DNA of 64,000 nucleotides from Alphaproteobacteria bacterium (GTDB lineage Bacteria; Pseudomonadota; Alphaproteobacteria; GCA-2731375): NCBI GenBank assembly GCA_021776235.1, contig JAJFGG010000011.1:38248-102247 (forward strand), read 5' to 3'. The notes under the pieces are model-generated. The model was not told where the DNA came from and ran no database searches. It was given only the letters and a program-made list of their open reading frames with translations. The position numbers and the translations under genes were made by a program. Within the stretch, counting starts at the first letter, position 1. The number at the start of each line of letters is the position of its first letter. Below, one piece after another: positions 3,871 to 54,574 of the stretch.

Positions 3871-4152
3871 TGGCACTTCGCCAAGTTCTCATTAAAAGTG
3901 CAGATTAGGCAATAAAAGGCCCAGATAAAACGGAAACAATGAACTTCCAGCACTCAAACAATCCACGTCTTGGATTAAAACTGCTCTGAACATTGATGAA
4001 ACAATAGATATGTTTGGTCAAAGCCTTGCCAGAAACTAAAAACATTTATGTCAATGACATAAACTTTTTGTTACTGGCAAAAGCCGCTCATTATCCAAGC
4101 CAGAACAAAATAACGGTCCTAACAGTGCGATCCGTGCTCATTTACCTAATCT

Positions 4153-4494
4153 TTATTGACAGGTGATCTTTAACGACATCTGCTCAAAATATGCTGCGGA
4201 TCGAACATCAATGGCGCCAGGGTGATCAAACGTCATCACAGCCACATCTCCCGGCTTTTGAATGCCAAGGCTGAATACCTGCCCAGGGCTAAGAGAATAG
4301 ATGGCGTGTTTAGCGCTATCGGAATTCTGGAAGCGTACGGTGTCGCCACGTTTGATGTGGAGGGAATCGCGGCTGAATTTGAGGCCCTCGATCGTTATCG
4401 TGTGGACGGCAGCGGATGCGCCCTGGAATGGGGCAACAGAGAGCGCCAGTACGCCTGCACACAGGATGGATTTAAGACAATTAGGCAATAACAT
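4153..4494 (-). CDS. Secreted cupredoxin-fold protein; degenerate paralogue of the amicyanin-like gene at 18349..18705 lacking the Cys and Met copper ligands
   Basis: Signal peptide (MLLPNCLKSILCAGVLALSVAPFQGASA). KHAIYSLSPGQVFSLGIQKPGDVAVMTF aligns with RHNVYSKSAGFKYLKIKKQKPGDRDSVTI of 18349..18705. Where the paralogue has LCALHPKM this copy has MTFDHPGA, so Cys and Met are lost and His is retained. Confidence 0.55.
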   Translation of the reverse strand: MLLPNCLKSILCAGVLALSVAPFQGASAAVHTITIEGLKFSRDSLHIKRGDTVRFQNSDSAKHAIYSLSPGQVFSLGIQKPGDVAVMTFDHPGAIDVRSAAYFEQMSLKITCQ

Positions 4495-5012
4495 GTTGGA
4501 GCTCCTTAAGATTGGAAATTTTTACTAAGTTAACATCGTCGCTGACGGTTTACTCAGATGTCGCCTATTTCCACTAATTCCAAGAGTAGTCCGTAGGTGT
4601 GAATTTTGTGTTACGACACATGGAGCGGTGATTTATTCTGGAGATTGGTCAGAATACTCAAACACAGCGGTGCGAGCAGGCGATGCGAAGCGCCCAATGA
4701 GACTTGCGCGCGGGCTCACTGAACCGGCCGGGTTCGTGACCCCGAAGCCGGACGTGCTCTGAGGTCTCTCGCTATTTAATCGCGCCGGCGCGTAGGTCGC
4801 CAGGGCGCCGACCGAGGTCGGAATCACTGTGACGATGGTGCAGTCGTCGGCCAGATGGCCCGTATATGGGCTTTGGCGGGCAATTGAGAGATGGTCGAGT
4901 ACGGTGGACCGTTGGCGAGGCGCGCGCGATGACCGGGCGGCCAGTGATGCCGCCGTTTTCCGCGCCCGGAGCAAGCGAAGCCAAGCGCCGAGGCCGGCGG
5001 GAACGGTCGCCG

Positions 5013-6776
5013 ATGCTTTGGGTCTGGTCGTCGCTACGTTGCCAAAAACTTCGAGATTGCGTGGTGGACGGACCAAACGATACACTGACGACCTCGCCAT
5101 GCAAGCGATCTCTGGGAAGGGAGTTGTTGAAGGTGAACGTACCTTTGACGGGGCCGGAGGCGGCGGAAGCAGTTAAGCAGTGCTCGTACGCGCTGGCCTC
5201 GCGGCCGGATTTTCCAGAGGCCGCGCGGCTGCTCGCCAGCCTGTTGCAGCGCTACGCGTTCAACGTCGAGACCGACCTTTCGCCGCGCGGCCTGCAAGCT
5301 GCGTTCGCGTTCAAGAATATCGACAGGCAGGCGTTGTGCAATGGTGCACTTGCCTTTCTGAAATGCCGGCCGCCGCGGGCCGATGTGCTGGCACGCGGCC
5401 GGGCCGACGGTTGGGACGCAGCGGCGGCACTGCTAACCCGCAAGGGCGCACGGCTTTTGCGCGACAGATTGTTCAGGTCCGCCCTGATCCATGGCGTTGT
5501 CGCCGACATCGAGATCGAGTTCCTGCTGACCGCGCTGCGGCGACGCCTGCTGCTGTCGCCGATGCTGCTCGCGGCGCGGCCGGTCTATGAATTCGCGTGC
5601 GTGCTGATCCGGCAATGCCTGAACAACGGGTATGTCTTCTTCGCCGATGAAGAGGAAAGGCTCCGTCTAGGCGAACTGAATGTGGATATTGACGCGATGC
5701 TCGAAGGTGACGCGGCGGCGGGCGGCGACTTCCTGCTGCTGTCACTGTACCGCCCGTTTCATGAAACACTCGGTCAAGAGGCGCGCACCGCCGACCAGGT
5801 GTCGCCCCAGGCCCTGCGCGCCGTGCTGCGCGATGAATTGGCGGCCCGCCGGATGGAGGCTGCGTATGCGGACAGCCTGCCCCGATTGACAGCAATTACC
5901 GACGAAATCTCTCGTCAGGTCGCCGACCAATATACCCACGACCCATATCCCCGTTGGCTCAGCCTGCAGGCACCGCAACCGGGAGGAGCCAAGGATCACA
6001 TGCGCGGCCATTTCTCCGCCGATGCGCTCGCCGCCATCGATGGCCCGTGCGATGTTCTGATCGCCGGCGCCGGAACCGGCCGTCAGGCGGTACATTCAGC
6101 CATTGGCTATGGTGCCGCGGCGCGGGTGCTGGCGATCGACCTGAGTGCGCCGAGCCTCGCCTACGGTGCGCTTATGGCCGAAGCGCTGGAAGTGGCGAAC
6201 CTGCGCTTTGCGATCGGCGATATCCTGCGCCTCTACGAGACCGGCGACCACTTCGATGTGATCGAATGCGTCGGTGTTCTGCATCACATGGTTGATCCCT
6301 TTGAGGGCTGGCGCGCGCTGCTCGATCGACTCCGCCCCGGCGGGCTGATGCTGATCGGACTATACAGCGCTTTGTCGCGCCGGGTCATTCAGGCGCTGTC
6401 CGAAGACCCGGATTGGCCGGGTTCGAAGGCAGACGATGACGCACTGCGCGCCTACCGGCAAAAGCTGATGGACCGCGCATCCGGCGATGATGCTTTCGCG
6501 CTGACGGGTTCAGTCGATTTTTTCACCAAGAGCGGCTTCCGCGATCTCGCCCTGCATGTCAGCGAGCGGCCATGCACGATCCCTGAAATTCGCGACTTCA
6601 TGGCCGCCCGGGGGCTCGAATTTCACGGCTTCAGCCTGCCGGACGAAACCTTGCGGGCCTATGCGGATGCCTTCCCCGGTGACGAGGCACCCGGCACGCT
6701 CGATCACTGGTGGGCGTTCGAACAGGAAAACCCGCAAACCTTCAACAGTATGTACCTGTTCTGGTGCCGTAAGTGA
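5013..6776 (+). CDS. Class I SAM-dependent methyltransferase with a long N-terminal helical/TPR-like domain
   Basis: Motifs DVLIAGAGTGRQAV (SAM-binding GxGxG), VLAIDLS, FDVIECVGVLHHM, LRPGGLMLIGLY. The track ORF starts at 4866, but that upstream part overlaps unconvincing reading frames. Start placed at the in-frame ATG 5013; an alternative is GTG 5134, preceded by GGAG. Confidence 0.65.
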   Translation: MLWVWSSLRCQKLRDCVVDGPNDTLTTSPCKRSLGRELLKVNVPLTGPEAAEAVKQCSYALASRPDFPEAARLLASLLQRYAFNVETDLSPRGLQAAFAFKNIDRQALCNGALAFLKCRPPRADVLARGRADGWDAAAALLTRKGARLLRDRLFRSALIHGVVADIEIEFLLTALRRRLLLSPMLLAARPVYEFACVLIRQCLNNGYVFFADEEERLRLGELNVDIDAMLEGDAAAGGDFLLLSLYRPFHETLGQEARTADQVSPQALRAVLRDELAARRMEAAYADSLPRLTAITDEISRQVADQYTHDPYPRWLSLQAPQPGGAKDHMRGHFSADALAAIDGPCDVLIAGAGTGRQAVHSAIGYGAAARVLAIDLSAPSLAYGALMAEALEVANLRFAIGDILRLYETGDHFDVIECVGVLHHMVDPFEGWRALLDRLRPGGLMLIGLYSALSRRVIQALSEDPDWPGSKADDDALRAYRQKLMDRASGDDAFALTGSVDFFTKSGFRDLALHVSERPCTIPEIRDFMAARGLEFHGFSLPDETLRAYADAFPGDEAPGTLDHWWAFEQENPQTFNSMYLFWCRK

Positions 6777-6799
6777 GTGATATCGGCTGTATGGGGCGC

Positions 6800-7897
6800 T
6801 TATAGGACAACATCGGTTTTCGGGTCGATCAGATGCATATGCGCCATGTCTATGGTGAATTCCATCGGCTGGCCGACCTGGCTGACCGCCCGCGGCCGCG
6901 ATCGGGTGGTAATTTCAGTCTCGCCGATATTGATAAACACCATGGTATCTATACCCATGGGTTCGAGGACGACAACATCGGACGTGAAATTGTGATGTGT
7001 CGGATCGGTATGTGGCCGTTTGTCGGTGATATGTTCGGGTCGTATGCCGAACAGCATCTCCCTTCCGACACCGGGGCCGCAACGGTCCAGGCGGTCCGCC
7101 GGCACGGGAAACGACAGATTATCCGCCAGTTGGATTGACAAGCCGCCGTTCGCAGCCTCGACTTGGCACGGTATGAAGTTCATCGAAGGAGAGCCAATGA
7201 AGGAAGCCACGAACAAGGTTTGGGGGTCGTCGTACATTTCCTCCGGTGTGCCGACCTGCTCGATGACGCCTTCGTTCATCACGACGATCCGGTCGGCCAG
7301 GGTCATTGCCTCGACCTGGTCGTGGGTGACGTAGACCACCGTGGTTTTCACCCGCTGATGGATCTTTTTGATTTCGGTACGCATCTGCACTCGCAGCTTG
7401 GCGTCCAGGTTGCTCAAGGGTTCATCGAATAGGAAGACCTGGGGGTCGCGGACGATGGCGCGGCCCATGGCGACGCGCTGGCGCTGGCCGCCGGAAAGCT
7501 GCTTCGGCCGACGCTCCAACAGCTCGCCAATGTTCAAGATATCCGCCGCCATATTGACCCTGCGGTCAATTTCTTCCTTTGGCGTCTTGCGAAGCCTCAA
7601 GCCAAAGGACATGTTCTGAAAGACGCTCATATGTGGATAAAGGGCGTAATTCTGGAACACCATGGCGATGTCGCGGTCCTTGGGCGCGACCTCGTTGACG
7701 ATGCGATCGCCGACGGAGATATCGCCAGCGGTGATATCTTCCAGTCCCGCGATCATGCGTAACGTCGTGGTCTTGCCACAGCCCGACGGGCCGACCAGGG
7801 CGATAAATTCGTTATGTTCGATATCCAGATTGATGCCGCGCACGGCCGGAACTTCGTCGTAGTACTTCCAGAGATCTCTCAGTTGAATTTCCGCCAT
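6800..7897 (-). CDS. ABC transporter ATP-binding protein (MalK/UgpC-type, sugar import)
   Basis: Walker [10 protein letters not shown], signature [14 protein letters not shown], Walker [13 protein letters not shown], and a C-terminal MalK-like regulatory domain. Confidence 0.9.
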
Positions 7898-25917: not shown

Positions 25918-27192
25918 TCACTCCGCCGCCCCCGCATGGGGGTTCCGCGGGTCCACGGCCCAGTTCAGATAGGGCTTGCCGTTATCGACCGGAGCCATGG
26001 TGATGCAGCCTTCGACCGGACAAACATGGGCGCACAGGTTGCAGCCGACGCATTCTGGATCAATGACTTCAAAGCGCCGTAGCGGGCCCTGTCCGGTCAC
26101 GGAAATAGCCTGATGGGCAGTATCCTCACAGGCGATGTGGCAGAGACCGCATTTGATGCATTTGTCCTGATCAATCCGCGCCACCAGTTCATAATTGATA
26201 TTCAAATCCTGCCAATCGACCAGATTCGCAATGGCGGCACCGTGAAAGTCCTGCAAACGCGAATAACCCTTGCCATCCATCCAGTTGTTCAGGCCGGCGA
26301 TCATGTCGTCGACAATCTTAAAACCGTAGTGCATGGCCCCGGTGCAAACCTGAATGGAATGGGAGCCAAGCGAGATGAACTCCGCGGCATCGCGCCAGGT
26401 TTCAATGCCGCCAATGCCCGATATGGCCATGCCCGCGCATTCCGGATCGGCGGCGATCTCCGCCACCAGATGCAGGGCGATGGGTTTCACCGCCGGCCCA
26501 CAATAGCCGCCGTGACTACCCTTGCCATCAACCATGGGATTTGGCGCCATGTGGTCCAAATCCACTGAAACGATGGAATTGACCGTGTTGATCAACGATA
26601 CGGCATCGGCTCCGCCGGCTTTGGCGGCGCGGGCCGGGGCCAGGATATTGGTGACATTGGGGGTTAGCTTGACGAGCACCGGCATTGCCGTCATGGATTT
26701 GCACCAGCGCGTCACCATCTCGACATATTCCGGCACCTGACCAACGGCTGAGCCCATGCCCCGTTCGGACATGCCATGGGGACAGCCGAAGTTCAGTTCC
26801 ACGCCATCGGCGCCGGTGTCTTCCACCGCCGCGAGGATTTTCTTCCAGGGCGCTTCCTCGCAGGGCACCATCAGTGAGACCAGGACCGCACGGTCGGGCC
26901 AGTCCCGTTTGATCTGTTTGATCTCTGCCAGATTGACGTCCAGGGGGCGGTCCGTGATCAGTTCTATGTTGTTGAAGCCCACCATGCGTTGACCGTTGAC
27001 TGCGATCGCGCCATAGCGCGAGGTGGTGTTGACCACCGGCGGATCCTCGCCCAGAGTTTTCCAGACAACGCCGCCCCATCCGGCCTTGAAGGCGCGTTCG
27101 ACGTTATAGGCCTTATCCGTGGGCGGGGCCGAGGCCAGCCAGAACGGGTTCGGTGATTTGATGCCGGCAAAATCGCAACGCAGATCGGCCAT
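25918..27192 (-). CDS. preA: NAD-dependent dihydropyrimidine dehydrogenase subunit PreA (DHOD-like domain plus 2x[4Fe-4S])
   Basis: Start at ATG 27192 (MADLRCDF; GGGAG upstream). C-terminal CIKCGLCHIACED…CVGCNLCAHVCPVEGC ferredoxin motifs. Confidence 0.85.
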   Translation of the reverse strand: MADLRCDFAGIKSPNPFWLASAPPTDKAYNVERAFKAGWGGVVWKTLGEDPPVVNTTSRYGAIAVNGQRMVGFNNIELITDRPLDVNLAEIKQIKRDWPDRAVLVSLMVPCEEAPWKKILAAVEDTGADGVELNFGCPHGMSERGMGSAVGQVPEYVEMVTRWCKSMTAMPVLVKLTPNVTNILAPARAAKAGGADAVSLINTVNSIVSVDLDHMAPNPMVDGKGSHGGYCGPAVKPIALHLVAEIAADPECAGMAISGIGGIETWRDAAEFISLGSHSIQVCTGAMHYGFKIVDDMIAGLNNWMDGKGYSRLQDFHGAAIANLVDWQDLNINYELVARIDQDKCIKCGLCHIACEDTAHQAISVTGQGPLRRFEVIDPECVGCNLCAHVCPVEGCITMAPVDNGKPYLNWAVDPRNPHAGAAE

Positions 27193-27196
27193 GCTC

Positions 27197-28543
27197 TCAG
27201 CTCCCATTTTCTCGTAAAAACAGGTCGATGGCGCGGGCCGCGATTTTGCCGTCCTGCACTGCCTGTACGGTCAAATCCTCTCCCGCCACGCAATCCCCGC
27301 CGGCCCAGACATCCGGCAAAGATGTCCGGCCATCCTGATCGACGGCGATACGGCCGGCGGCCAGTTGCAGGCCGACGTCCCCTGGCGGCACGAACGCCTG
27401 GCCGACTGCCTTGAAGACCATGTCGCAGGGTAGGCTTTGTTCCGTGCCCGCATCCAACAGGCTGCCGTCGTCCGATTGCCGGACAGCGGCAAATACCGCC
27501 GCCCTGACCTCGCCGCCGCGGCCTTCCAGGCGCAACGGCCGTAGCCAGTGTTTGATCCGCACGCCGTTGATTTGGGCGAATTCCTGCTCGTGAACCGTCG
27601 CACCCATTTGCGCCGGTCCCCGGCGATAGACCAGGGTGACGTCATCGGCGCCGAGACGTTTCGACTGTACGGCGATATCGATGGCAGTGTTGCCGCCCCC
27701 GATCACGACCACCTTCGCGCCTACGGGCAAGGCGGCAAGATTATCCGCCTGACGCAGCGCGGCGATATAATCGACGGCATTGTGCACGCCGGCCAGATCT
27801 CCGCCCGGCACCTCGAGAGCGCGAACCCCGTCCTGGCCCAGGCCAAGGAAGACTGCGTCGAAGTCCCGGCGCAAATCGTCAAGGGCGATATCCCGGCCCA
27901 GTGCCAGGCCGTATCGCATGTCGATGCCGCCAATGGCGGTGACGAAGGACACCTCTTCCTGGGCGAAATTATCGGGCACTTTGTAGGCGGCAATACCGAA
28001 TTCGTTCAGGCCGCCGGGCTTGGTGCGGGCCTCGAACAAAGTCACCTCATGGCCCTGTCTGGCCAAACCGTGGGCGCAGGCCAAACCGGCTGGGCCGGCT
28101 CCGACCACCGCAACGGATTTGCCGGTAGCCGACGCACGCAGGAATGGGTGGGCCGCGGCCGGATCCAGATGATCAATGGCATGGCGTTGCAACATACCGA
28201 TGGCGACGGGCTGGTCGCCACGACCATCGACATTGTTGCGGACGCAGACGCCCTGACACAGAATTTCCGTCGGGCAGACCCGGGCGCAACTGCCACCGAG
28301 AATATTCTCTGTCAGTATCGTCATGGCAGCGCCGGAAACGTTACCGGTGGCGATGGCACGGATAAAACCCGGCACGTCGATGCCTGTCGGGCAGGCCGCG
28401 GTACAAGGTGCGTCATAACAGAAATAACAGCGCTGGGCCTCCACCAGGGCGGCGGTTTGGTCCAGGGGCTGGTGCACATCGGCGAAGTTTTCGGCCAATG
28501 CCTCGCTGTCCAACCTTCCGGCTTGGATATCCGCCTTGTCCAT
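27197..28543 (-). CDS. preT: NAD-dependent dihydropyrimidine dehydrogenase subunit PreT (GltD-like)
   Basis: CYFCYDAPCTAACPTGIDV Fe-S motif; VAVVGAGPAGLACA and VVVIGGGNTAID dinucleotide-binding motifs. The start could also be 28558 or 28567. Confidence 0.8.
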   Translation of the reverse strand: MDKADIQAGRLDSEALAENFADVHQPLDQTAALVEAQRCYFCYDAPCTAACPTGIDVPGFIRAIATGNVSGAAMTILTENILGGSCARVCPTEILCQGVCVRNNVDGRGDQPVAIGMLQRHAIDHLDPAAAHPFLRASATGKSVAVVGAGPAGLACAHGLARQGHEVTLFEARTKPGGLNEFGIAAYKVPDNFAQEEVSFVTAIGGIDMRYGLALGRDIALDDLRRDFDAVFLGLGQDGVRALEVPGGDLAGVHNAVDYIAALRQADNLAALPVGAKVVVIGGGNTAIDIAVQSKRLGADDVTLVYRRGPAQMGATVHEQEFAQINGVRIKHWLRPLRLEGRGGEVRAAVFAAVRQSDDGSLLDAGTEQSLPCDMVFKAVGQAFVPPGDVGLQLAAGRIAVDQDGRTSLPDVWAGGDCVAGEDLTVQAVQDGKIAARAIDLFLRENGS

Positions 28544-28647
28544 TGTCTCGTCCCCCATGCCCAACACAATCGTTCACTCGGACCGGCAAGTGTAACGAAT
28601 GCCAATGATCAGTGGTATAGCAAGCGCTGGATTTTTGGCCGGAACCG

Positions 28648-29268
28648 TCAGGTTTTCTTTTTCGCGCCAATCTTGGGTTCCGTACCGCTGAACAGGCGGC
28701 GAATGTTCTGGTGGTGCCGGACGAAAACAAGGATCGCCATGAAGGCGGCCAATTCCATAATCTGCCAATTGCCCAGCCACCAGGCCAATGCGGGCGCGGC
28801 GGCGGCGGCGGCCAGGGAGGCAAGAGAAGAATAGCGGAGCAAGGCCGCGACAACCAACCAGGTCAGGCAGCACAACACGCCGGCCAGCCAGTTCACCGCC
28901 AGCATCACACCGAGAAACGTCGCCATACCCTTGCCGCCGCGAAAGCGCAGCCAGACGGGAAACAGATGGCCGACAAAGGCCCCGCCCCCGGCCAGTATGG
29001 TCATATCGGGCCCGTACATGGCGCCTAACACAGCCGCTGCCGCGCCTTTGCCGCCGTCCAGCAATAAGGTCAGTGCGGCCAGGCCCTTGTTGCCTGTGCG
29101 CAGCACGTTGGTGGCGCCGATATTGCCCGAGCCGATGGCCCGAATATCACCCAGACCTGCAAGGCGGGTGAGGACCAGGCCAAAGGGGATGGATCCCAGC
29201 AAATAACCCAGCGCCGCCGCGGCCCAGTAGGGCCAAATATAGGTTAGATCGCCCATGGGACTTGGCAT
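28648..29268 (-). CDS. plsY: Glycerol-3-phosphate acyltransferase PlsY
   Basis: LGSIPFGLV…IGSGNIGATNVLR…GKG motifs; about 200 aa, polytopic. Confidence 0.9.
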   Translation of the reverse strand: MPSPMGDLTYIWPYWAAAALGYLLGSIPFGLVLTRLAGLGDIRAIGSGNIGATNVLRTGNKGLAALTLLLDGGKGAAAAVLGAMYGPDMTILAGGGAFVGHLFPVWLRFRGGKGMATFLGVMLAVNWLAGVLCCLTWLVVAALLRYSSLASLAAAAAAPALAWWLGNWQIMELAAFMAILVFVRHHQNIRRLFSGTEPKIGAKKKT

Positions 29269-29271
29269 TGT

Positions 29272-30573
29272 CTAATCCCCACCATTGGGATCGGAGTATA
29301 CCACCTTGCCATCAACGACGGTGCGCCAGGCTCGGCCTTGCACGGGCCGGTCATGATAGGGGGTGTTCTTGGCCTTGCTGTGAAAGCCGTCCTCGTCGAT
29401 GCGCCAGGGCTTGTCAGGGTCGAAAACCAGTAGATCAGCCGGCGCGCCCGGCGACAGTTTCCCGCCGCGCAGGCCGAGCAACTGCGCCGGACGGCAGGTC
29501 ATTTTCGCCAGCAGGTCGGACAAACCGATGGCGCCGTTATGATAGAGTGCCAACGCCAGGGGCAACATGGTTTCCAGGCCGATGATCCCGGTCGCGGCCA
29601 ACTCGAACGGCAAGCGCTTGGATTCCACATCCTGCGGGTCGTGGCAGGAACAGATCACATCAATCGTACCATCCGCCAGGCCGGCGACGACGGCCTGGCG
29701 GTCCGCTTCGTCGCGCAACGGCGGCGCGGTTTTGGCAAAGGTTCGGTATTCCCCAACTGCCGTCTCGTTCAAGGCAAAGCTATGCACCGCCGCCGCCGCC
29801 GATACCGGCAAACCCCGCGCCTTGCCCCGGGCCAACGCCTCTATCGCCTGGGCGGTTGACAAACAGGCGGCGTGATAGCGGCCGCCGGTCATTTCCACCA
29901 GCCGCAGATCGCGTTCCACCATGATGGTTTCAGCCTGGGTCGGGATGTCGGGCAGTCCCAGCCGCATGGCCACCTCGCCCGCATTCATAACGCCGCTGCC
30001 AGCCAATGCCGGCTCCTCTGGATAGTGGCAAATCAAAAGGTCGAAGGCCGAGGCATAGCTGAGCACCCGGCGCATCACCTGGGCGTCCGCTACCGCCCGG
30101 TCCGCATCGGTGAAGGCGACGGCGTCAGCCTCCGCCAACAGGCCCAATTCCGCCATCTTTTCACCGCGCAGCCCCTTGGTGATTGCGGCCATGGGATGGA
30201 TCCGCACGACTGCCTTGTCGCGGGCCTGGCGTTTGATGTATTCGACCAGCGCCACCTCGTCGATGACCGGTTCCGTGTTCGGTTGCACGATGATGCAGGT
30301 AACGCCACCCGCTGCCGCGGCGGCCGAGGCCGAGGCCAGGGTTTCCTTATGTTCGGCGCCGGGTTCGCCGACAAAGACGCGCATATCGATCAGGCCGGGG
30401 CATAGCACCCGGCCGGCGCAATCGACCACTTCCAACCCGTCGGGCACGCCGCCGTCGAACAGCGCCGCACCCAGATCGGTGATTATGCCGCCTTCCGTCA
30501 ATAGCGCACCGGGGCCATCGAGACCGCTGGCCGGGTCTATCAAACGGGCGTTTATATAGGCAGTGGCGCTCAT
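29272..30573 (-). CDS. pyrC: Dihydroorotase (class I, 'multifunctional complex type')
   Basis: Amidohydrolase fold ([14 protein letters not shown]…). Classic alphaproteobacterial pyrB-pyrC-plsY order. Confidence 0.8.
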
Positions 30574-31553
30574 GCTCCGCCGCCATCCGGGCCGACGGGC
30601 GGTTGATTGGAGGTTTGCCGCGAAATCAGATCCAGAACAGCCATGCGCACGGCCACGCCCATTTCGACCTGCTCGCGGATGACGCTGCGGTTGATGTCGT
30701 CAGCCAGCTCGCTATCAATTTCCACGCCCCGGTTCATGGGACCCGGATGCATGATCAGGGCTTCCGGCTTGGCCTTGGCCAGCTTGCTCTGGTCAAGGCC
30801 AAAAAAATGGTAATATTCGCGCGTCGACGGCACGTAGGCCCCGTTCATACGTTCATTTTGCAGACGCAGCATCATTACAATATCCACGTCCCGCAGCCCC
30901 TCGGTCATATCGTGGAAAACCTCGACCCCCATGCGATCCATGGTGCCGGGCAACAGGGTGGGCGGGGCGATGGCGCGGACATGGGCACCCATAATGTTCA
31001 ACAGCATAATGTTCGAGCGCGCCACCCGGCTGTGCAGAATATCGCCGCAAATCGCCACGGTCAGGCCATGCAGGCGGCCCAGACGGCGGCGGATGGTCAG
31101 GGCGTCCAGCAGCGCCTGGGTGGGGTGTTCGTGGCTGCCATCACCGGCATTGATAACGCTGCAATCCATCTTCTGGCTCAACAGCGCGACGGCGCCGGAA
31201 TGGGGATGGCGCACCACCAGGGCATCAGGGTGCATGGCGTTCAGGGTTGCCGCCGTGTCAATCAGCGTCTCGCCCTTTTTGATGGCCGATGCCGTCGCCG
31301 TCATGTTGATGACATCGGCGCCCAGGCGTTTGCCCGCCAGTTCGAACGATGTGCGGGTCCGGGTCGAGGTCTCGAAGAACAGATTGATTTGCGTTCGGCC
31401 ACGCAAGATCGAACGCTTTTTGTCGACCTGACGGTTTTGCGCCACGTATTCGTCGGACAGATCAAGTATTTCGGTAATCTCGGACGGCGATAGTCCCCCG
31501 ATGCCCAAGAGGTGACGAAAAGGAAAATTGTGCGGAGATATATCGCTCATCAA
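30570..31553 (-). CDS. pyrB: Aspartate carbamoyltransferase catalytic subunit
   Basis: [19 protein letters not shown] motifs. Confidence 0.9.
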
Positions 31554-49340: not shown

Positions 49341-51638
49341 TTGCCGCTTGGTGTTATCCCTACAGTCATTGATATTATGAAAAACGCAAGAATCAGCAAT
49401 TCTCTCAAGACGGGGATGCGAAGAATGAAATCACTCATCGCTGGGGCAGCTATCATAATTGCCTTGCTGACAGCAGGCCTGACAGAGGTTTTTGCTCAGC
49501 AAAGGCCGGCTGTGGAGCGGCCCAAGATTGGCCTGGTTCTTTCCGGCGGCGGCGCGAAGGGCGCCTCTCATGTCGGTGTGATCAAGGTTCTGGAGGAACT
49601 GGGCGTTCCCATTGACTACATCGCCGGTACCAGCATGGGTGCAATCGTCGGCGGACTTTATGCCTCCGGCTTATCATCGGAAGAGCTTGCAACAGCCATT
49701 AAGTCAATCGACTGGGAGGACATTTTCGACGACAAGCCGCCCCGTGAGAACCGGGATTTTCGGCGCAAGTTAGATGATGAAGGTTTCCTTGTCCGCTACA
49801 AGCTGGGCTTCAAGGATGGCAGTTTCCACCTGCCCCGTGGCGTCATCAACGGTCAGAAACTCAATCTTGTTCTTCGTGAATTGTCGATAAATGCCATTGG
49901 CAAAAAGGACTTCGATAAGTTGAAGATCCCATTTCGGGCGGTCGCGGCGGATATCGAAACCGGCGAAACCGTCATTCTTGCTTCAGGGGACCTGGCAAGA
50001 GCAATGCGGGCGAGCATGGCCGTCCCCGGCGCTTTCCCACCGGTAGATATCGATGGCCGCCTGCTGGTCGATGGCGGTCTCGCCGACAACGTGCCGATCA
50101 ATGTGGCGCGCAAAATGGGCGCCGACATCGTGATTGTCGTTGGCTTTCCGGCAAACTTGAAAAAGCGCGGTGAGTTGAAAAGCGCCCTCGACATCGTCTT
50201 CCAGTCGTTGGATCTATTGATTGGGCAGAACTCCCGCATTCAATTGAAGACGCTGAAATCCCATGATGTTTATATCGAGCCTGCATTGGGCGATATCAGC
50301 GCGTCGAGTTTCGATCGCGCGCCTGACGCCATCGCAATAGGAGAGCAGGCCGCGCGATCCCACTTGAAAGTATTGCAGGGTTTAGTGCAACCGCAAATGG
50401 CTCCGCGGTTGGTGGTCTCGCAAGCCACGGCCTCGGAAAACGAGGCGTTCATCATCGATTTCATCCGTATTGAAAACAGATCGAGACTGTCCGACGATCT
50501 AATTTCCGTCCGCCTGCGTCAAAAACCAGGCGACACCCTGGACATCGACACACTCGAACAGGACATAGCGCAGATTTATGGCCTCGATTATTTTGAAACC
50601 GTCACATATACGGTGGTCGTCGAAAAAGACAAGACGGGCATCGTTGTCACCGCGACAGAAAAAAGTACCGGGTTGGACTCCTTCAGGTTCGGGCTGAATC
50701 TTGAAAGCGATTTCGACGGCGACAGCGATTTTAACGTCAGTGTACGATACCAGAAGGAAGGCTTGAACGAACTGGGTGGTGAACTACTTTTGCAGGCCAT
50801 TGCCGGCGAAAAGCTGGGCGCGACGGTGAATTTTTTACAACCGCTTGATCCGGGCACCAGATACTTCATCAATGGAAGCCTGGATTATCTGGAACGTGAC
50901 GTTTTTGTATTCCAGAACGGCCGCAGAATCGGCGAGGTCCGGATCAGCGAATTTGAGGCCGGCTTGAACCTGGCGCGTCAGCTCGGCAATTGGGGCGCTG
51001 TTTCGATAGGACTGGACCATGGCTATGGATGGCAGGATGATGTTGTTGGCACCACCACCCCGCAAGACGATGACTATGGCACCGGCAGCTTCTATACCCG
51101 ATTCAATTACGACACCCTGGATCAACTCGGATTCCCAAAGACCGGCGCCAAGGCAAAGGCCGAGTTTCGGCGTTTAAGCGAAACACTAGGTGGCGAGGAG
51201 GACTTCAGCAAATCTACCGCCAGCTTCGTGACGGCCCATACATGGGACCGCAATACGATCCTACTTGGCGGTGACGCAGGAATTACCCATGACGGCGAAG
51301 GTTTCGTTCAGGACCTATTCGAACTGGGCGGCTTCTTTAATTTATCGGGATTGCTGACAGATTCGCTAAGCGGGCAGAATTTCGCGTTGGGCGAAATGAT
51401 TTATTACCGCAATATTGTGAAGGGGAGCGGATTGATCAAATTTCCGGTTTATCTGGGCGCCTCTCTGGAAGCGGGAAATGTCTGGGACGACCGCAGCGAT
51501 ATGAGCCTTGACGATCTGGTGATTGCCGGCAGCGGCTTTCTTGGCGTCGACACGCCACTCGGTCCGGCCTATCTGGCTTACGGCCGCGCCGAGGGCGGTA
51601 ACAGCGCCGTCTATTTCTTCCTGGGGCAGACTTTCTAG
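49341..51638 (+). CDS. Patatin-like phospholipase fused to an Omp85/BamA-type outer-membrane beta-barrel (PlpD-like)
   Basis: Patatin motifs GGGAKGASHVG and GTSMG (GxSxG), then DGG. A C-terminal ~400 aa beta-strand-rich surface-antigen domain ends in an aromatic residue (…YFFLGQTF). The start may be ATG 49425 (MKSLIAGAAIII). Confidence 0.8.
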   Translation: MPLGVIPTVIDIMKNARISNSLKTGMRRMKSLIAGAAIIIALLTAGLTEVFAQQRPAVERPKIGLVLSGGGAKGASHVGVIKVLEELGVPIDYIAGTSMGAIVGGLYASGLSSEELATAIKSIDWEDIFDDKPPRENRDFRRKLDDEGFLVRYKLGFKDGSFHLPRGVINGQKLNLVLRELSINAIGKKDFDKLKIPFRAVAADIETGETVILASGDLARAMRASMAVPGAFPPVDIDGRLLVDGGLADNVPINVARKMGADIVIVVGFPANLKKRGELKSALDIVFQSLDLLIGQNSRIQLKTLKSHDVYIEPALGDISASSFDRAPDAIAIGEQAARSHLKVLQGLVQPQMAPRLVVSQATASENEAFIIDFIRIENRSRLSDDLISVRLRQKPGDTLDIDTLEQDIAQIYGLDYFETVTYTVVVEKDKTGIVVTATEKSTGLDSFRFGLNLESDFDGDSDFNVSVRYQKEGLNELGGELLLQAIAGEKLGATVNFLQPLDPGTRYFINGSLDYLERDVFVFQNGRRIGEVRISEFEAGLNLARQLGNWGAVSIGLDHGYGWQDDVVGTTTPQDDDYGTGSFYTRFNYDTLDQLGFPKTGAKAKAEFRRLSETLGGEEDFSKSTASFVTAHTWDRNTILLGGDAGITHDGEGFVQDLFELGGFFNLSGLLTDSLSGQNFALGEMIYYRNIVKGSGLIKFPVYLGASLEAGNVWDDRSDMSLDDLVIAGSGFLGVDTPLGPAYLAYGRAEGGNSAVYFFLGQTF

Positions 51639-51650
51639 AGTGTGTCGCGG

Positions 51651-51896
51651 CTAATCGAGACCCAACAGTTCGTCGACTTTTTCCGGGCCCAGCTCGGGGC
51701 CAAACAACAGCTCGTCATCGACCTGCAGCACCGGCGAGGAGCGGATGTTGTGGCTATCGATGAAGGCCGCCGCATCCTCGTCCATCATCAGGTCCTTGGC
51801 CACGAATTCCACATCATGGGCCCGCAAATAAGCCTTCAACTGCTCGCATGGCGCACACAAAGGCGTCGAGTAGACGGTCACTGATCTGGCTGCCAT
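51651..51896 (-). CDS. Glutaredoxin-like protein (NrdH/YruB-like, CxxC)
   Basis: VTVYSTPLCAPCEQLKAYL…SSPVLQVDDELLFG. Immediately downstream of, and abutting, the predicted selenoprotein. Confidence 0.75.
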   Translation of the reverse strand: MAARSVTVYSTPLCAPCEQLKAYLRAHDVEFVAKDLMMDEDAAAFIDSHNIRSSPVLQVDDELLFGPELGPEKVDELLGLD

Positions 51897-52793
51897 CTAG
51901 GCTTTCCCCTCCTCTTTCAGCTTGCGGTACAGGGCCTTTTTCTCCAACCAGGCGTTTTTGACCTCTTCGGTCTGCCAGGGTTGATCCTGGGTGAAGACCT
52001 TGGCCTTCCAATCCTCGCCCTTGGACCATTCAAACGGCGTCTGTACCGTCGTACGGGGCCCCTCGGCGCTTTCCAGCAGGTCCAGGGCCATGGCTATGAT
52101 CTGGCGCTGCATGGCAACTTTGCCGGGCTCGCCGCAAGGGCTACCCAGAGGAAAATCGGTGAACAGCAATCGAGGTACGCCGCAGGTTTCGACAATATCA
52201 CGAGCGGCGGCGACGATGACGGTGGGAATACCGTTCTCTTCCAGGTAACGTGCGACCAGACTCACGGTCTGGTGGCAAACCGGTCAGACCGGCGTCAGCA
52301 GCGCGACATCCACCTCTTCATCCCGGCAACGCCGCAATATCTCCGGCGCATCCACATCCAGGGTCTTGCGCTGGGAATAGGCATTGTATACGCCATAGGC
52401 CGTTGGCGCGAAGCTGGCAAAGCGCCCTTCCGCCTGGACCTCCTGCAACCGGGTCACCGGGAAATAGGCGTTTACATCCTCCAGCGAGGTCGCGTTTTTA
52501 TCATAGCTATGGGTTTGGCTGTAAAGGTCTTCTACAGGCGTATCGCTTGGCACTCCATAGACATTGGCCGGCGCGCCCTTTTCCTGTGGCGTGCGTTGAT
52601 CTTCCCAGGTGCGCACCGCGATCTCGGACGTCGAAATCAGGGCCAGGCGGCTTTCCGCCAAAGGCTTGCGCAATGGCGTGAACGGCACATCGTCAAATTT
52701 GGCCCATTGGTAGGGCTTATCGTAGCCTTCCGCCTGATAATAGGCCCGGGTCTTGTCAATATAGCGAACATAACTCATAGGGCACTCCTCCAT
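51897..52793 (-). CDS. Predicted selenoprotein of the glycine/sarcosine/betaine/D-proline reductase selenoprotein B (GrdB/PrdB) family; in-frame TGA (Sec) at 52284..52286
   Basis: Track ORFs 52284..52793 and 51897..52265 are in the same frame, separated only by TGA: …VALLTPV-U-PVCHQTV SLVARYLEENG…. A stem-loop (ACCAGAC-CGUGA-GUCUGGU) begins 11 nt 3' of the UGA, like a bacterial SECIS element. Combined length about 298 aa. Confidence 0.55.
52255..52273 (-). other. SECIS-like hairpin 11 nt downstream of the in-frame UGA
   Basis: mRNA UGA CCG GUU UGC C-ACCAGAC-CGUGA-GUCUGGU. A 7-bp perfect stem, extendable by 3–5 further pairs with one mismatch. The apical loop contains GU. Confidence 0.5.
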
Positions 52794-52933
52794 TCTTACG
52801 GCCCGCCGCAGGCAGCCGCTAAACGCAAACTATACTCCAGTATGGTAGTTTCCCTCTACCCTCGCAAGGCTTGCCCGGCCTTATATATACAGGCTGTCCA
52901 GTAGGATAACGCGGTTGACGGGAGTGAACTGGC

Positions 52934-54574
52934 ATGGATTGGCACGGCGTTACCATTGGTCAGGCATTGCGGCGTTCGGCCCAATCGTGGCCCGACAACG
53001 ATTTTGTAATTGGCATGGGAAAACGGCTCTCATACGCCGAGTTTGACGCACAGGTTGACCGCCTGGCCCTGGGTCTGCTGGGTCTGGGGGTCGTCCGAGG
53101 CGATCATGTGGCCTGCTGGCTGACCAACAGCCCGGCCTGGCTGTTGACCTGGTTTGCCTGTTGCCGCATTGGCGCCACCGTGGTCTCCATCAACACGCGC
53201 TATAAGATTGCGGAGGTTGAATACATTCTGCGGCAATCGGATGCCAAAGTGTTGGTGGCCATGCCGTATTACTGGAATATCGACTATCTCGAAATGCTTC
53301 GCGGCATGGCGCCGGTATTCGAAGACGCGGTACCGGGCCGGATGCAGGTGGCGGCATTGCCCCAGTTACGCGCCGTGGTGTTGTGGGATGACGTGGAACA
53401 TCCGGGCACGATTTCGCAAAGCGCCCTGATGGCGGCTTCACGGGATAGGGCAGATCTGGCGGCGGCCGAAGCTTTGGTACGGACCGAAGACCCGGTTATA
53501 ATAATCTACACTTCCGGCACCACGGGCCAGCCAAAGGGCGCCATGCATTGCCACGCGGTGCTGATTGAAGGCCAAAACATCGCCAACGCCATGCATATGG
53601 AAGCAGGCGACAAGGTGCTGGGCCACATGCCGCTGTATCATGTGGCCGGCAGCGTGGCGACGACCCTGCCGGCCATGCAGAACGGTTGCAGCCTGGTGAC
53701 CATGGACGAATGGGACGCAGCAAAGGCCCTGGATCTGATCGAACGGGAACGCATCGCCATCATGGGCGGTATCCCGACGCACTTTTTTGACCTGTTGAGC
53801 CAACCTGGCGTAGAGGCGCGGGATACCCATTGCCTGAAGACGGCCTGGATCGGCGGCGCCCCGGTAACCCCGGCCATCGCCCGGCGGGTCAAGACGACCC
53901 TGCATTTCGAGGCACTACAGGCGGTCTATGGTATGACCGAGACCATGGGGATGACGACCCTTAGTGCGTTTGATGCTCCCATCGAAGTGACCTGCGAAAA
54001 CAAGGGCAAACCAATCGGCGATTACGAAATCGGTGTCTTTGATCCCGAGACCGGTGTCAAAAAGGCGATGGGCGAGGATGGTGAAATCTGGGTACGCGGC
54101 TATCTGGTCATGCAGGGTTATTACAAGGACCCCGAGGCGACCCGGGCGGCGATCACGCCAGAAGGCTGGTTCCGCACTGGCGACCTGGGTCAGATGGACC
54201 GTGACGGTTATTTGAAAATCACCGGCCGGGCCAAGGAAATGTTCATCGTCGGCGGCTCCAATGCCTACCCGGCCGAAATCGAACGTTTCCTGGAAACCTG
54301 CGGCGCCATTTACCAGGCAGTGGTCTGCGGCGTACCCGACGCGAGACTGGGCGAAGTCGGCTTTGCCTTCGTCATGCCCGCCCCCGGCGCCAGCCTGCGC
54401 CAGGGGGATGTCATCAGTCATTGCCGCGGCGCCATCGCGGACTACAAGGTTCCCCGGTACATCCAGATCGTCGACGATTTCCCGCGCACCTCGACCAACA
54501 AAATTCAGCGCTATCTGTTGCAGCAGGAGGCCCTGGGCCGGTTTCCCGAAGAGCCTGTGACAAGCACTGATTGA
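52934..54574 (+). CDS. AMP-dependent acyl-CoA synthetase/ligase
   Basis: IIYTSGTTGQPKGAM (AMP-binding), WFRTGDLG, and GRAKEMFIVGGSNAYPAEIE motifs. Confidence 0.9.
   Translation: MDWHGVTIGQALRRSAQSWPDNDFVIGMGKRLSYAEFDAQVDRLALGLLGLGVVRGDHVACWLTNSPAWLLTWFACCRIGATVVSINTRYKIAEVEYILRQSDAKVLVAMPYYWNIDYLEMLRGMAPVFEDAVPGRMQVAALPQLRAVVLWDDVEHPGTISQSALMAASRDRADLAAAEALVRTEDPVIIIYTSGTTGQPKGAMHCHAVLIEGQNIANAMHMEAGDKVLGHMPLYHVAGSVATTLPAMQNGCSLVTMDEWDAAKALDLIERERIAIMGGIPTHFFDLLSQPGVEARDTHCLKTAWIGGAPVTPAIARRVKTTLHFEALQAVYGMTETMGMTTLSAFDAPIEVTCENKGKPIGDYEIGVFDPETGVKKAMGEDGEIWVRGYLVMQGYYKDPEATRAAITPEGWFRTGDLGQMDRDGYLKITGRAKEMFIVGGSNAYPAEIERFLETCGAIYQAVVCGVPDARLGEVGFAFVMPAPGASLRQGDVISHCRGAIADYKVPRYIQIVDDFPRTSTNKIQRYLLQQEALGRFPEEPVTSTD

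Follow-up and report, generated by a model that had tools for sequence, protein, structure and literature searches.

A predicted SECIS-dependent UxxC selenoprotein of the GrdB/PrdB superfamily, encoded next to a glutaredoxin-like protein in an alphaproteobacterial genome

Introduction

Two surveys, of 2005 and 2008, described a "PrdB" family of selenoproteins in marine bacteria (Zhang, Fomenko & Gladyshev 2005, PMC1088965; Zhang & Gladyshev 2008, PMC2398784). In the Sargasso Sea data of the first, the UxxC "proline reductase PrdB" ranked third in abundance among selenoprotein families, with 42 Sec sequences and a single Cys sequence, and the second counts 235 Sec and 110 Cys sequences in the "PrdB" family of the GOS data. 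The UxxC motif is listed for both PrdB and GrdB (PMC1088965, Table 3; also PMC13188914), reviews include D-proline reductase (TIGR04483, UxxC) among the known selenoprotein families (PMC9312934, PMC13188914), and for the clostridial PrdB both PMC1088965 and PMC13188914 cite Kabisch et al. 1999. The passages searched in PMC1088965, PMC2398784, PMC9312934 and PMC13188914 make no mention of a conserved glutaredoxin partner, of a signature of Val/Ile and AGT/AGC codons that separates Sec from Cys forms, or of the absence of PrdA.

Here, we describe a member of this group in a 64-kb window, by which we mean the whole stretch of alphaproteobacterial DNA that was analyzed. An initial annotation of this DNA had proposed a "hidden" selenoprotein, encoded by two open reading frames joined by an in-frame TGA and followed by a glutaredoxin gene. 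Public gene calls do split the gene, but "hidden" is too strong a word, since the marine UxxC "PrdB" family is abundant and has long been catalogued (PMC1088965, PMC2398784). From its motif, its Pfam assignment and the habitat of its relatives, we infer that the window gene belongs to this catalogued Sargasso/GOS family. The finding is a correct re-discovery of that family, and near-identical sequences are present in public databases.

Results

One reading frame with an internal TGA

On the minus strand, positions 51897-52793 translate as a single frame with one internal stop, the TGA at 52284-52286 (junction ...DVALLTPV*PVCHQTVSLVARYLE...), and end at the TAG at 51897-51899. As had been noted, two listed ORFs of the minus strand, 52284-52793 (169 aa) and 51897-52265 (122 aa, GTG start), lie in this one frame and are parted only by the TGA. 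Read as selenocysteine, the UGA would supply the first residue of a redox motif U-P-V-C-H-Q, and the predicted Sec-bearing peptide of the joined product would be ...LLTPV-U-PVCHQTVSLVAR. Standard ORF calling had been expected to break such a gene in two, and public calls bear this out, with pieces of 164/169 aa and 120-126 aa. One NCBI entry (P0062) is named "selenoprotein B family protein", yet it is cut to 164 aa at the Sec codon.

The PrdB-like gene would encode 298 aa from the ATG at 52793 (MEECPMSY...) or 293 aa from the ATG at 52778 (MSYVRY...), the two candidate start codons lying within 52776-52793 of the minus strand. A GGAGGAG Shine-Dalgarno motif is located 6 nt upstream of the second ATG, and most homologues use this second position; the gene may therefore start at 52778, giving 293 aa as in the homologues, rather than at 52793. 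Relatives of the P0081 type (MEEIVLSYVRY) must start at the first position, since they have no Met at the second.

An in-frame TGA could also be decoded as Trp, Gly or Cys, by a reassigned code or general readthrough, or it could be a sequencing error. A tryptophan does occupy the TGA column in one database homologue (P0093, VWPICHQT), presumably because TGA was read as Trp when the gene was called. In the window, however, TGA is the commonest ordinary stop and terminates 9 of 17 family-supported ORFs, from which we conclude that it is not reassigned. A sequencing error is at odds with the recurrence of the same TGA in 61 independent assemblies, and the covarying hairpin described below, which is specific to the TGA forms, is needed for Sec insertion but not for a reassigned code. 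We consider this whole group of explanations extremely improbable. When the window was scanned crudely for other ORF pairs joined by a TGA in redox-like contexts, only frame-shadow noise came up besides this locus.

Relationship to the GrdB/PrdB superfamily

Profile searches were run on the 298-aa product with Cys placed at the TGA. The NCBIfam model TIGR04483 (D-proline reductase PrdB) matched residues 38-257 over model positions 20-235 of 238, with an E-value of 3.7e-36; the match crosses the junction, which lies at residue 170 in the 298-aa numbering. Pfam GRDB (PF07355) matched residues 19-167 (E 3.4e-5) with 23.8 bits, marginally above its gathering cut-off of 22. The proposed resemblance of the concatenated product of ~298 aa to GrdB/PrdB is thus borne out by two models, and alignment across the junction is continuous in the first of them. 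Models for GrdB, GrdF and GrdH were matched in their C-terminal halves (model positions ~190-425 of proteins of ~430 aa), with TIGR01918 reaching 37.6 bits against a cut-off of 65.45 and covering only model positions 197-422 of 431. Sequence homology places the protein in the GrdB/PrdB "selenoprotein B" superfamily.

In a search of 5.8 billion proteins, we found full-length relatives of ~293 aa with 55-72% identity, together with many fragments of 164-173 aa that show 70-91% identity to the query but extend over just its first 55-57%. Such fragments, which end exactly at ...PV, make up the nearest relatives (76-91% identity). In the alignment, the TGA column is occupied by Cys in the full-length homologues (VCPVCHQT), in agreement with the expectation that either Sec or Cys should be found there. 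In other words, the U-P-V-C at the TGA corresponds to C-P-V-C in all full-length homologues, as well as in the 19 Cys-type loci introduced below. No solved structures of relatives were found in a search for them.

With PrdB as its best curated model (TIGR04483, E 3.7e-36), and with "proline reductase PrdB" as the label given to the family by some sources and in the literature (PMC1088965), the protein might be a genuine D-proline reductase B subunit, acting with a pyruvoyl PrdA encoded elsewhere to convert D-proline to 5-aminovalerate. Against this, the joined product scores 124.8 bits with TIGR04483, far under the equivalog cut-off of 300, and it extends beyond the 238-position PrdB model at both its N- and its C-terminus. 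The gene neighborhood and the hosts, which also bear on this question, are considered further below.

Conservation of the coding sequence on both sides of the TGA

For comparison across genomes, we used one genome per species (GTDB), which gave 80 loci. The motif column holds TGA in 61 of these and TGC or TGT in 19. Most of the hosts are marine Alphaproteobacteria and Burkholderiales MAGs, and the closest relatives of the window gene come from marine Rhodospirillaceae/Alphaproteobacteria MAGs. The Cys forms are concentrated in Burkholderiales/Betaproteobacteria.

Among the 59 distinct TGA-type sequences, the six codons that follow the TGA (P-V-C-H-Q-T) are invariant in their amino acids and vary only at third positions (CCG/C/T/A, GTT/C/G/A, TGC/T, CAC/T, CAG/A). 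This pattern of variation implies that translation continues through the TGA. It also bears on the simplest alternative, that the TGA is a real stop, either in a pseudogene or in a split gene that yields polypeptides of 164/169 aa and 122 aa. Automatic gene callers do annotate two pieces, and the GTG in the loop of the hairpin described below could in principle act as a start codon for the second. However, 59 distinct sequences, drawn from many phyla, share the TGA at this column, the six codons between it and that GTG are invariant in their amino acids but vary at third positions, the Cys homologues are single proteins, and no Shine-Dalgarno motif precedes the loop GTG. A real stop is accordingly most improbable. 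The in-frame TGA aligns with Cys in homologues and is flanked on both sides by conserved coding sequence, as is found in selenoprotein genes.

A hairpin conserved in the TGA forms

Directly downstream of the TGA, within the coding sequence, we find a candidate bacterial SECIS hairpin (52251-52277, minus strand). In its 7-bp core stem, ACCAGAC (52273-52267) pairs with GUCUGGU (52261-52255) around the loop CGUGA (52266-52262), which contains GU. The stem begins at the 11th base after the UGA, leaving a distance of 10 bases, and past a C.C mismatch a weak lower stem (UGC/GCA, 52277-52275 with 52253-52251) could extend it. The hairpin was therefore present as the initial annotation had it: 11 nt 3' of the UGA, with a 7-bp stem extendable to about 10 bp and GU in the loop. 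The apical loop opens 17 nt past the UGA, in line with the bSECISearch consensus attributed to Zhang and Gladyshev in 2005, reportedly a loop 16-37 nt after the UGA.

ViennaRNA predicts exactly the ACCAGAC-CGUGA-GUCUGGU hairpin. The folding stability of a 76-nt segment is not unusual for its composition (z = -0.96), and no Rfam family was matched, either in the whole window at gathering thresholds or in 51600-52900 at E<=10. A single sequence thus proves nothing, and the significance of the hairpin has to come from comparison. All seven core pairs are retained in 54 of the 59 distinct Sec-type sequences, against none of the 18 Cys-type sequences. Two pairs show compensatory changes. At pair 18-28, A-U replaces G-C five times (CAA with TTG) and G-U replaces it once, with zero mismatches. 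At pair 15-31, there are six replacements of C-G by U-A and two by U-G, again with zero mismatches. A U-A at this pair requires a synonymous change in the His codon combined with a replacement of Val by Ile or Thr. At these stem positions, the Cys forms have A.C and C.A mismatches. Over the whole alignment, 91.5% of the cells are paired on the named structure, and a shift of the partners by 1-3 columns leaves 20-36% paired; double changes occur in 11 cells, and the covariation score was reached by none of 500 shuffles. The three-pair lower stem is not conserved.

Codon choice around the loop separates the two forms as well. The Thr codon is ACC in 59 of 59 Sec forms, whereas Cys forms use ACC, ACG or ACA (ACC in 10 of 18). 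The codon after it is Val GTG in 58 of the 59 Sec forms and Ile (ATC/ATT) in the Cys forms, and the Ser codon is AGT in 55 Sec forms, the other four having Gly GGT, against AGC in all 18 Cys forms. The loop CGUGA and its closing pairs are selected beyond the protein code, because synonymous sites are frozen only in the Sec forms. In short, a stem-loop with a small, G-containing loop lies just 3' of the UGA and is conserved and covarying in the TGA forms, and the SECIS-like hairpin behaves as a conserved bacterial SECIS would. On this comparative evidence, we consider the hairpin to be a bacterial SECIS that is selected in the TGA forms only, and the gene to be a genuine SECIS-dependent UxxC selenoprotein of the GrdB/PrdB superfamily, as predicted from its sequence.

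Genes for selA, selB, selC and selD were sought among the 30 large ORFs of the 64-kb window and with a tRNA-Sec search, and none was detected there. Likewise, no tRNA-Sec was located beside the 60 related loci that were examined.

A conserved glutaredoxin neighbor

The next gene on the minus strand (51651-51896) encodes an 81-aa glutaredoxin-like protein whose active site reads CAPC. The gene starts with an ATG immediately after the stop codon of the selenoprotein gene (TAG, 51897-51899), and GAGGAGGGG is located upstream of this ATG, at 51914-51906. Pfam Glutaredoxin (PF00462) matches with 39.9 bits against a gathering cut-off of 22.9 (E 4.8e-10), and the closest NCBIfam model, the YruB-family TIGR02196, gives 52.5 bits, below its cut-off of 88.55.

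A glutaredoxin homologue lies directly downstream at 67 of the 84 related sites with enough sequence, including all 19 Cys-type loci. The initial annotation had pointed to an adjoining CxxC glutaredoxin-like gene, and both the assignment and the adjacency hold up, with the neighbor conserved well beyond the window. The motif TPLC-x-P-C-E is conserved, with CxPC in 67 of 68 matches of related loci and CPSC in the other. Sixteen Sec-type relatives have no glutaredoxin neighbor; in 12 of these, we looked for an alternative thiol partner downstream and found nothing consistent.

Related long contigs carry the same split calls, of 164/169 aa and then 120-126 aa, followed by an 80-81-aa Glutaredoxin protein. 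They share with the window a synteny that comprises QueG, an ABC exporter, an acyl-CoA synthetase, and DHDPS with a branched-chain amino-acid transporter. To return to the possibility of a true D-proline reductase, the 10 kb on either side of the locus contain no gene for PrdA, PrdC or a Gly_reductase-family protein in three related long contigs, nor a Gly_reductase/PrdA-type gene in L001 and L003-L005, and no PrdA-type gene was found among the 30 large ORFs of the window. All-against-all ORF clustering within +/-4 kb of the 80 loci gave no third conserved neighbor, the only conserved companions being the glutaredoxin and shadow ORFs on other frames. Some neighbors are clade-specific: an acyl-CoA synthetase, an ORF cluster in 16 loci that we take to be CoA-transferase family III (e.g., in the Cys-type L065, 289-1521), and a cluster in 11 loci that we take to be a Bug-family binding protein (e.g., in the Cys-type L046, 381-1379). 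The clade of the window gene instead has a divergent acyl-CoA synthetase, at 52934-54574. Going by gene order across these genomes, the conserved unit is the selenoprotein together with the glutaredoxin, and the glutaredoxin is likely to be the dedicated reductant of the selenoprotein.

Sub-cut-off scores and the lack of a nearby PrdA mean that the window gene is not a certified PrdB. Several features argue against a true D-proline reductase: scores that stay under threshold, additional sequence at the termini, the lack of a PrdA, and hosts that are proteobacterial, largely marine and not Stickland fermenters. One further observation speaks for it: the glutaredoxin-less paralogues described next adjoin genes of families linked to D-amino-acid metabolism. 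All in all, we regard a genuine D-proline reductase B subunit as very unlikely.

Paralogues and other genes of the window

One clade of Sec-type paralogues lacks the glutaredoxin (L051, L055, L057 at 4013-7420, and L071) and is followed on the same strand by proteins of the Amidohydro_3 and Ala_racemase_N/D-ser_dehydrat families. Both Amidohydro_3 and Ala_racemase_N with D-ser_dehydrat are linked to D-amino-acid metabolism, and their position hints at a D-amino-acid substrate for this glutaredoxin-less paralogue. Several MAGs have two Sec-type paralogues on different contigs (L007 and L055, L008 and L057, L010 and L071, L076 and L083). One of the 61 TGA loci carries the TGA twice, in tandem copies; in this locus (L020), the copies are ~3.2 kb apart (TGA at 422 and 3659), and the glutaredoxin gene is present only after the second.

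In the window itself, an ORF of 765 aa on the plus strand (49341-51638) converges on the glutaredoxin gene with a gap of 12 nt; its N-terminal part is a patatin-like phospholipase (RssA-like, E 5.7e-36), and its C-terminal part is BamA/Omp85-like (E 1.6e-11). A pyrimidine-metabolism cluster occupies 25918-31553 on the minus strand and contains a PreA-type dihydropyrimidine dehydrogenase subunit (25918-27207), a GltD/PreT-like NAD(P) flavoprotein (27197-28567), a dihydroorotase (29272-30573) and an aspartate carbamoyltransferase (30570-31553). Finally, a 636-aa ORF with a methyltransferase domain (4866-6776, plus strand) gave a weak match to an "arsenite methyltransferase/AhpD domain selenoprotein" model (E 4.8e-6, 25.6 bits against 510). 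The match is limited to residues 388-498, the same region as a UbiG methyltransferase match, and we saw no sign that this ORF encodes a selenoprotein.

Predicted structure and proposed mechanism

For a structural view of the motif, we modeled the Cys homologue P0001, which is 72% identical to the window protein, with AlphaFold2 and 38 sequences (pLDDT 89.8, pTM 0.89). In this model, motif residue 165 (P0001 numbering) is positioned between a strand (158-162) and a helix (166-181). Redox-active CxxC and UxxC motifs classically occupy such a position, where a strand gives way to the N-terminus of a helix.

We propose the following scheme, which assumes that Sec machinery is available for the UGA at 52284-52286. 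By the established bacterial mechanism, SelB with Sec-tRNA(Sec) would bind the hairpin and deliver Sec at the UGA instead of termination. If the protein works as PrdB and GrdB do, its selenolate would attack either a bound substrate or an oxidized thiol substrate, and Cys168 would resolve the adduct into a Se-S bond. As the conserved synteny suggests, the co-transcribed CxPC glutaredoxin-like protein would then reduce this bond, with electrons that might come from glutathione or thioredoxin reductase. Both the catalytic steps and the role of the glutaredoxin are thus modeled on PrdB/GrdB and on synteny; the catalytic scheme used for the analogy is the one summarized in PMC13188914.

Discussion

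Taken together, we conclude with high confidence that the locus is one two-gene operon, which encodes a SECIS-decoded Sec protein of the GrdB/PrdB superfamily and its likely glutaredoxin reductant, and that the former is probably not a true D-proline reductase subunit. A broader reading, to which we give an even chance, is that the "proline reductase PrdB" of the ocean does not act as a proline reductase. It might instead make up, with the CxPC glutaredoxin dedicated to it, a selenol/thiol reductase of two proteins that is complete in itself and operates in aerobic or facultative Proteobacteria without a pyruvoyl PrdA/GrdE partner. Its paralogues might be specialized for different substrates, one clade lying beside genes of families linked to D-amino-acid metabolism.

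Knowledge of selenocysteine decoding is unchanged by this finding. Its use lies in annotation and as a starting point for biochemistry. In public databases, this gene and the majority of its relatives still appear as two "hypothetical" pieces, cut at the UGA. The family is among the commonest selenoproteins of the ocean, yet it passes no curated family model. The conserved features suggest a rule for joining such fragments: a TGA, 10 nt, and then ACCAGAC-CGUGA-GUCUGGU, with Thr ACC, Val GTG and Ser AGT. For biochemistry, the conserved glutaredoxin partner and the absence of PrdA offer leads.

With regard to known systems, the hairpin can be set beside the bacterial SECIS of the E. coli fdhF type, from which it differs in that the ACCAGAC-CGUGA-GUCUGGU element of the window family has no Rfam model. 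Protein B of glycine, sarcosine and betaine reductase (GrdB, GrdF, GrdH; PF07355, TIGR01918) has the Sec active site and the C-terminal half in common with the window protein. The latter, however, is without the N-terminal half, has no GrdA, GrdE or GrdC genes nearby, and has a UxxC motif where GrdB has UxxCxxC, as described in PMC13188914. PrdB of Clostridium sticklandii and C. difficile (TIGR04483) is homologous over model positions 20-235 of 238 and shares the Sec-x-x-Cys. Compared with this clostridial PrdB, the window protein is ~55 aa longer, scores 124.8 against 300 bits, and has no adjacent prdA or prdC; its gene is paired with a glutaredoxin instead, and its hosts are not amino-acid fermenters. 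The marine "PrdB" of the Sargasso and GOS data and the window protein are alike in their GRDB/PrdB homology, in a UxxC with Sec first, in the mixture of Sec and Cys forms and in their marine abundance, and we see no essential difference between them.
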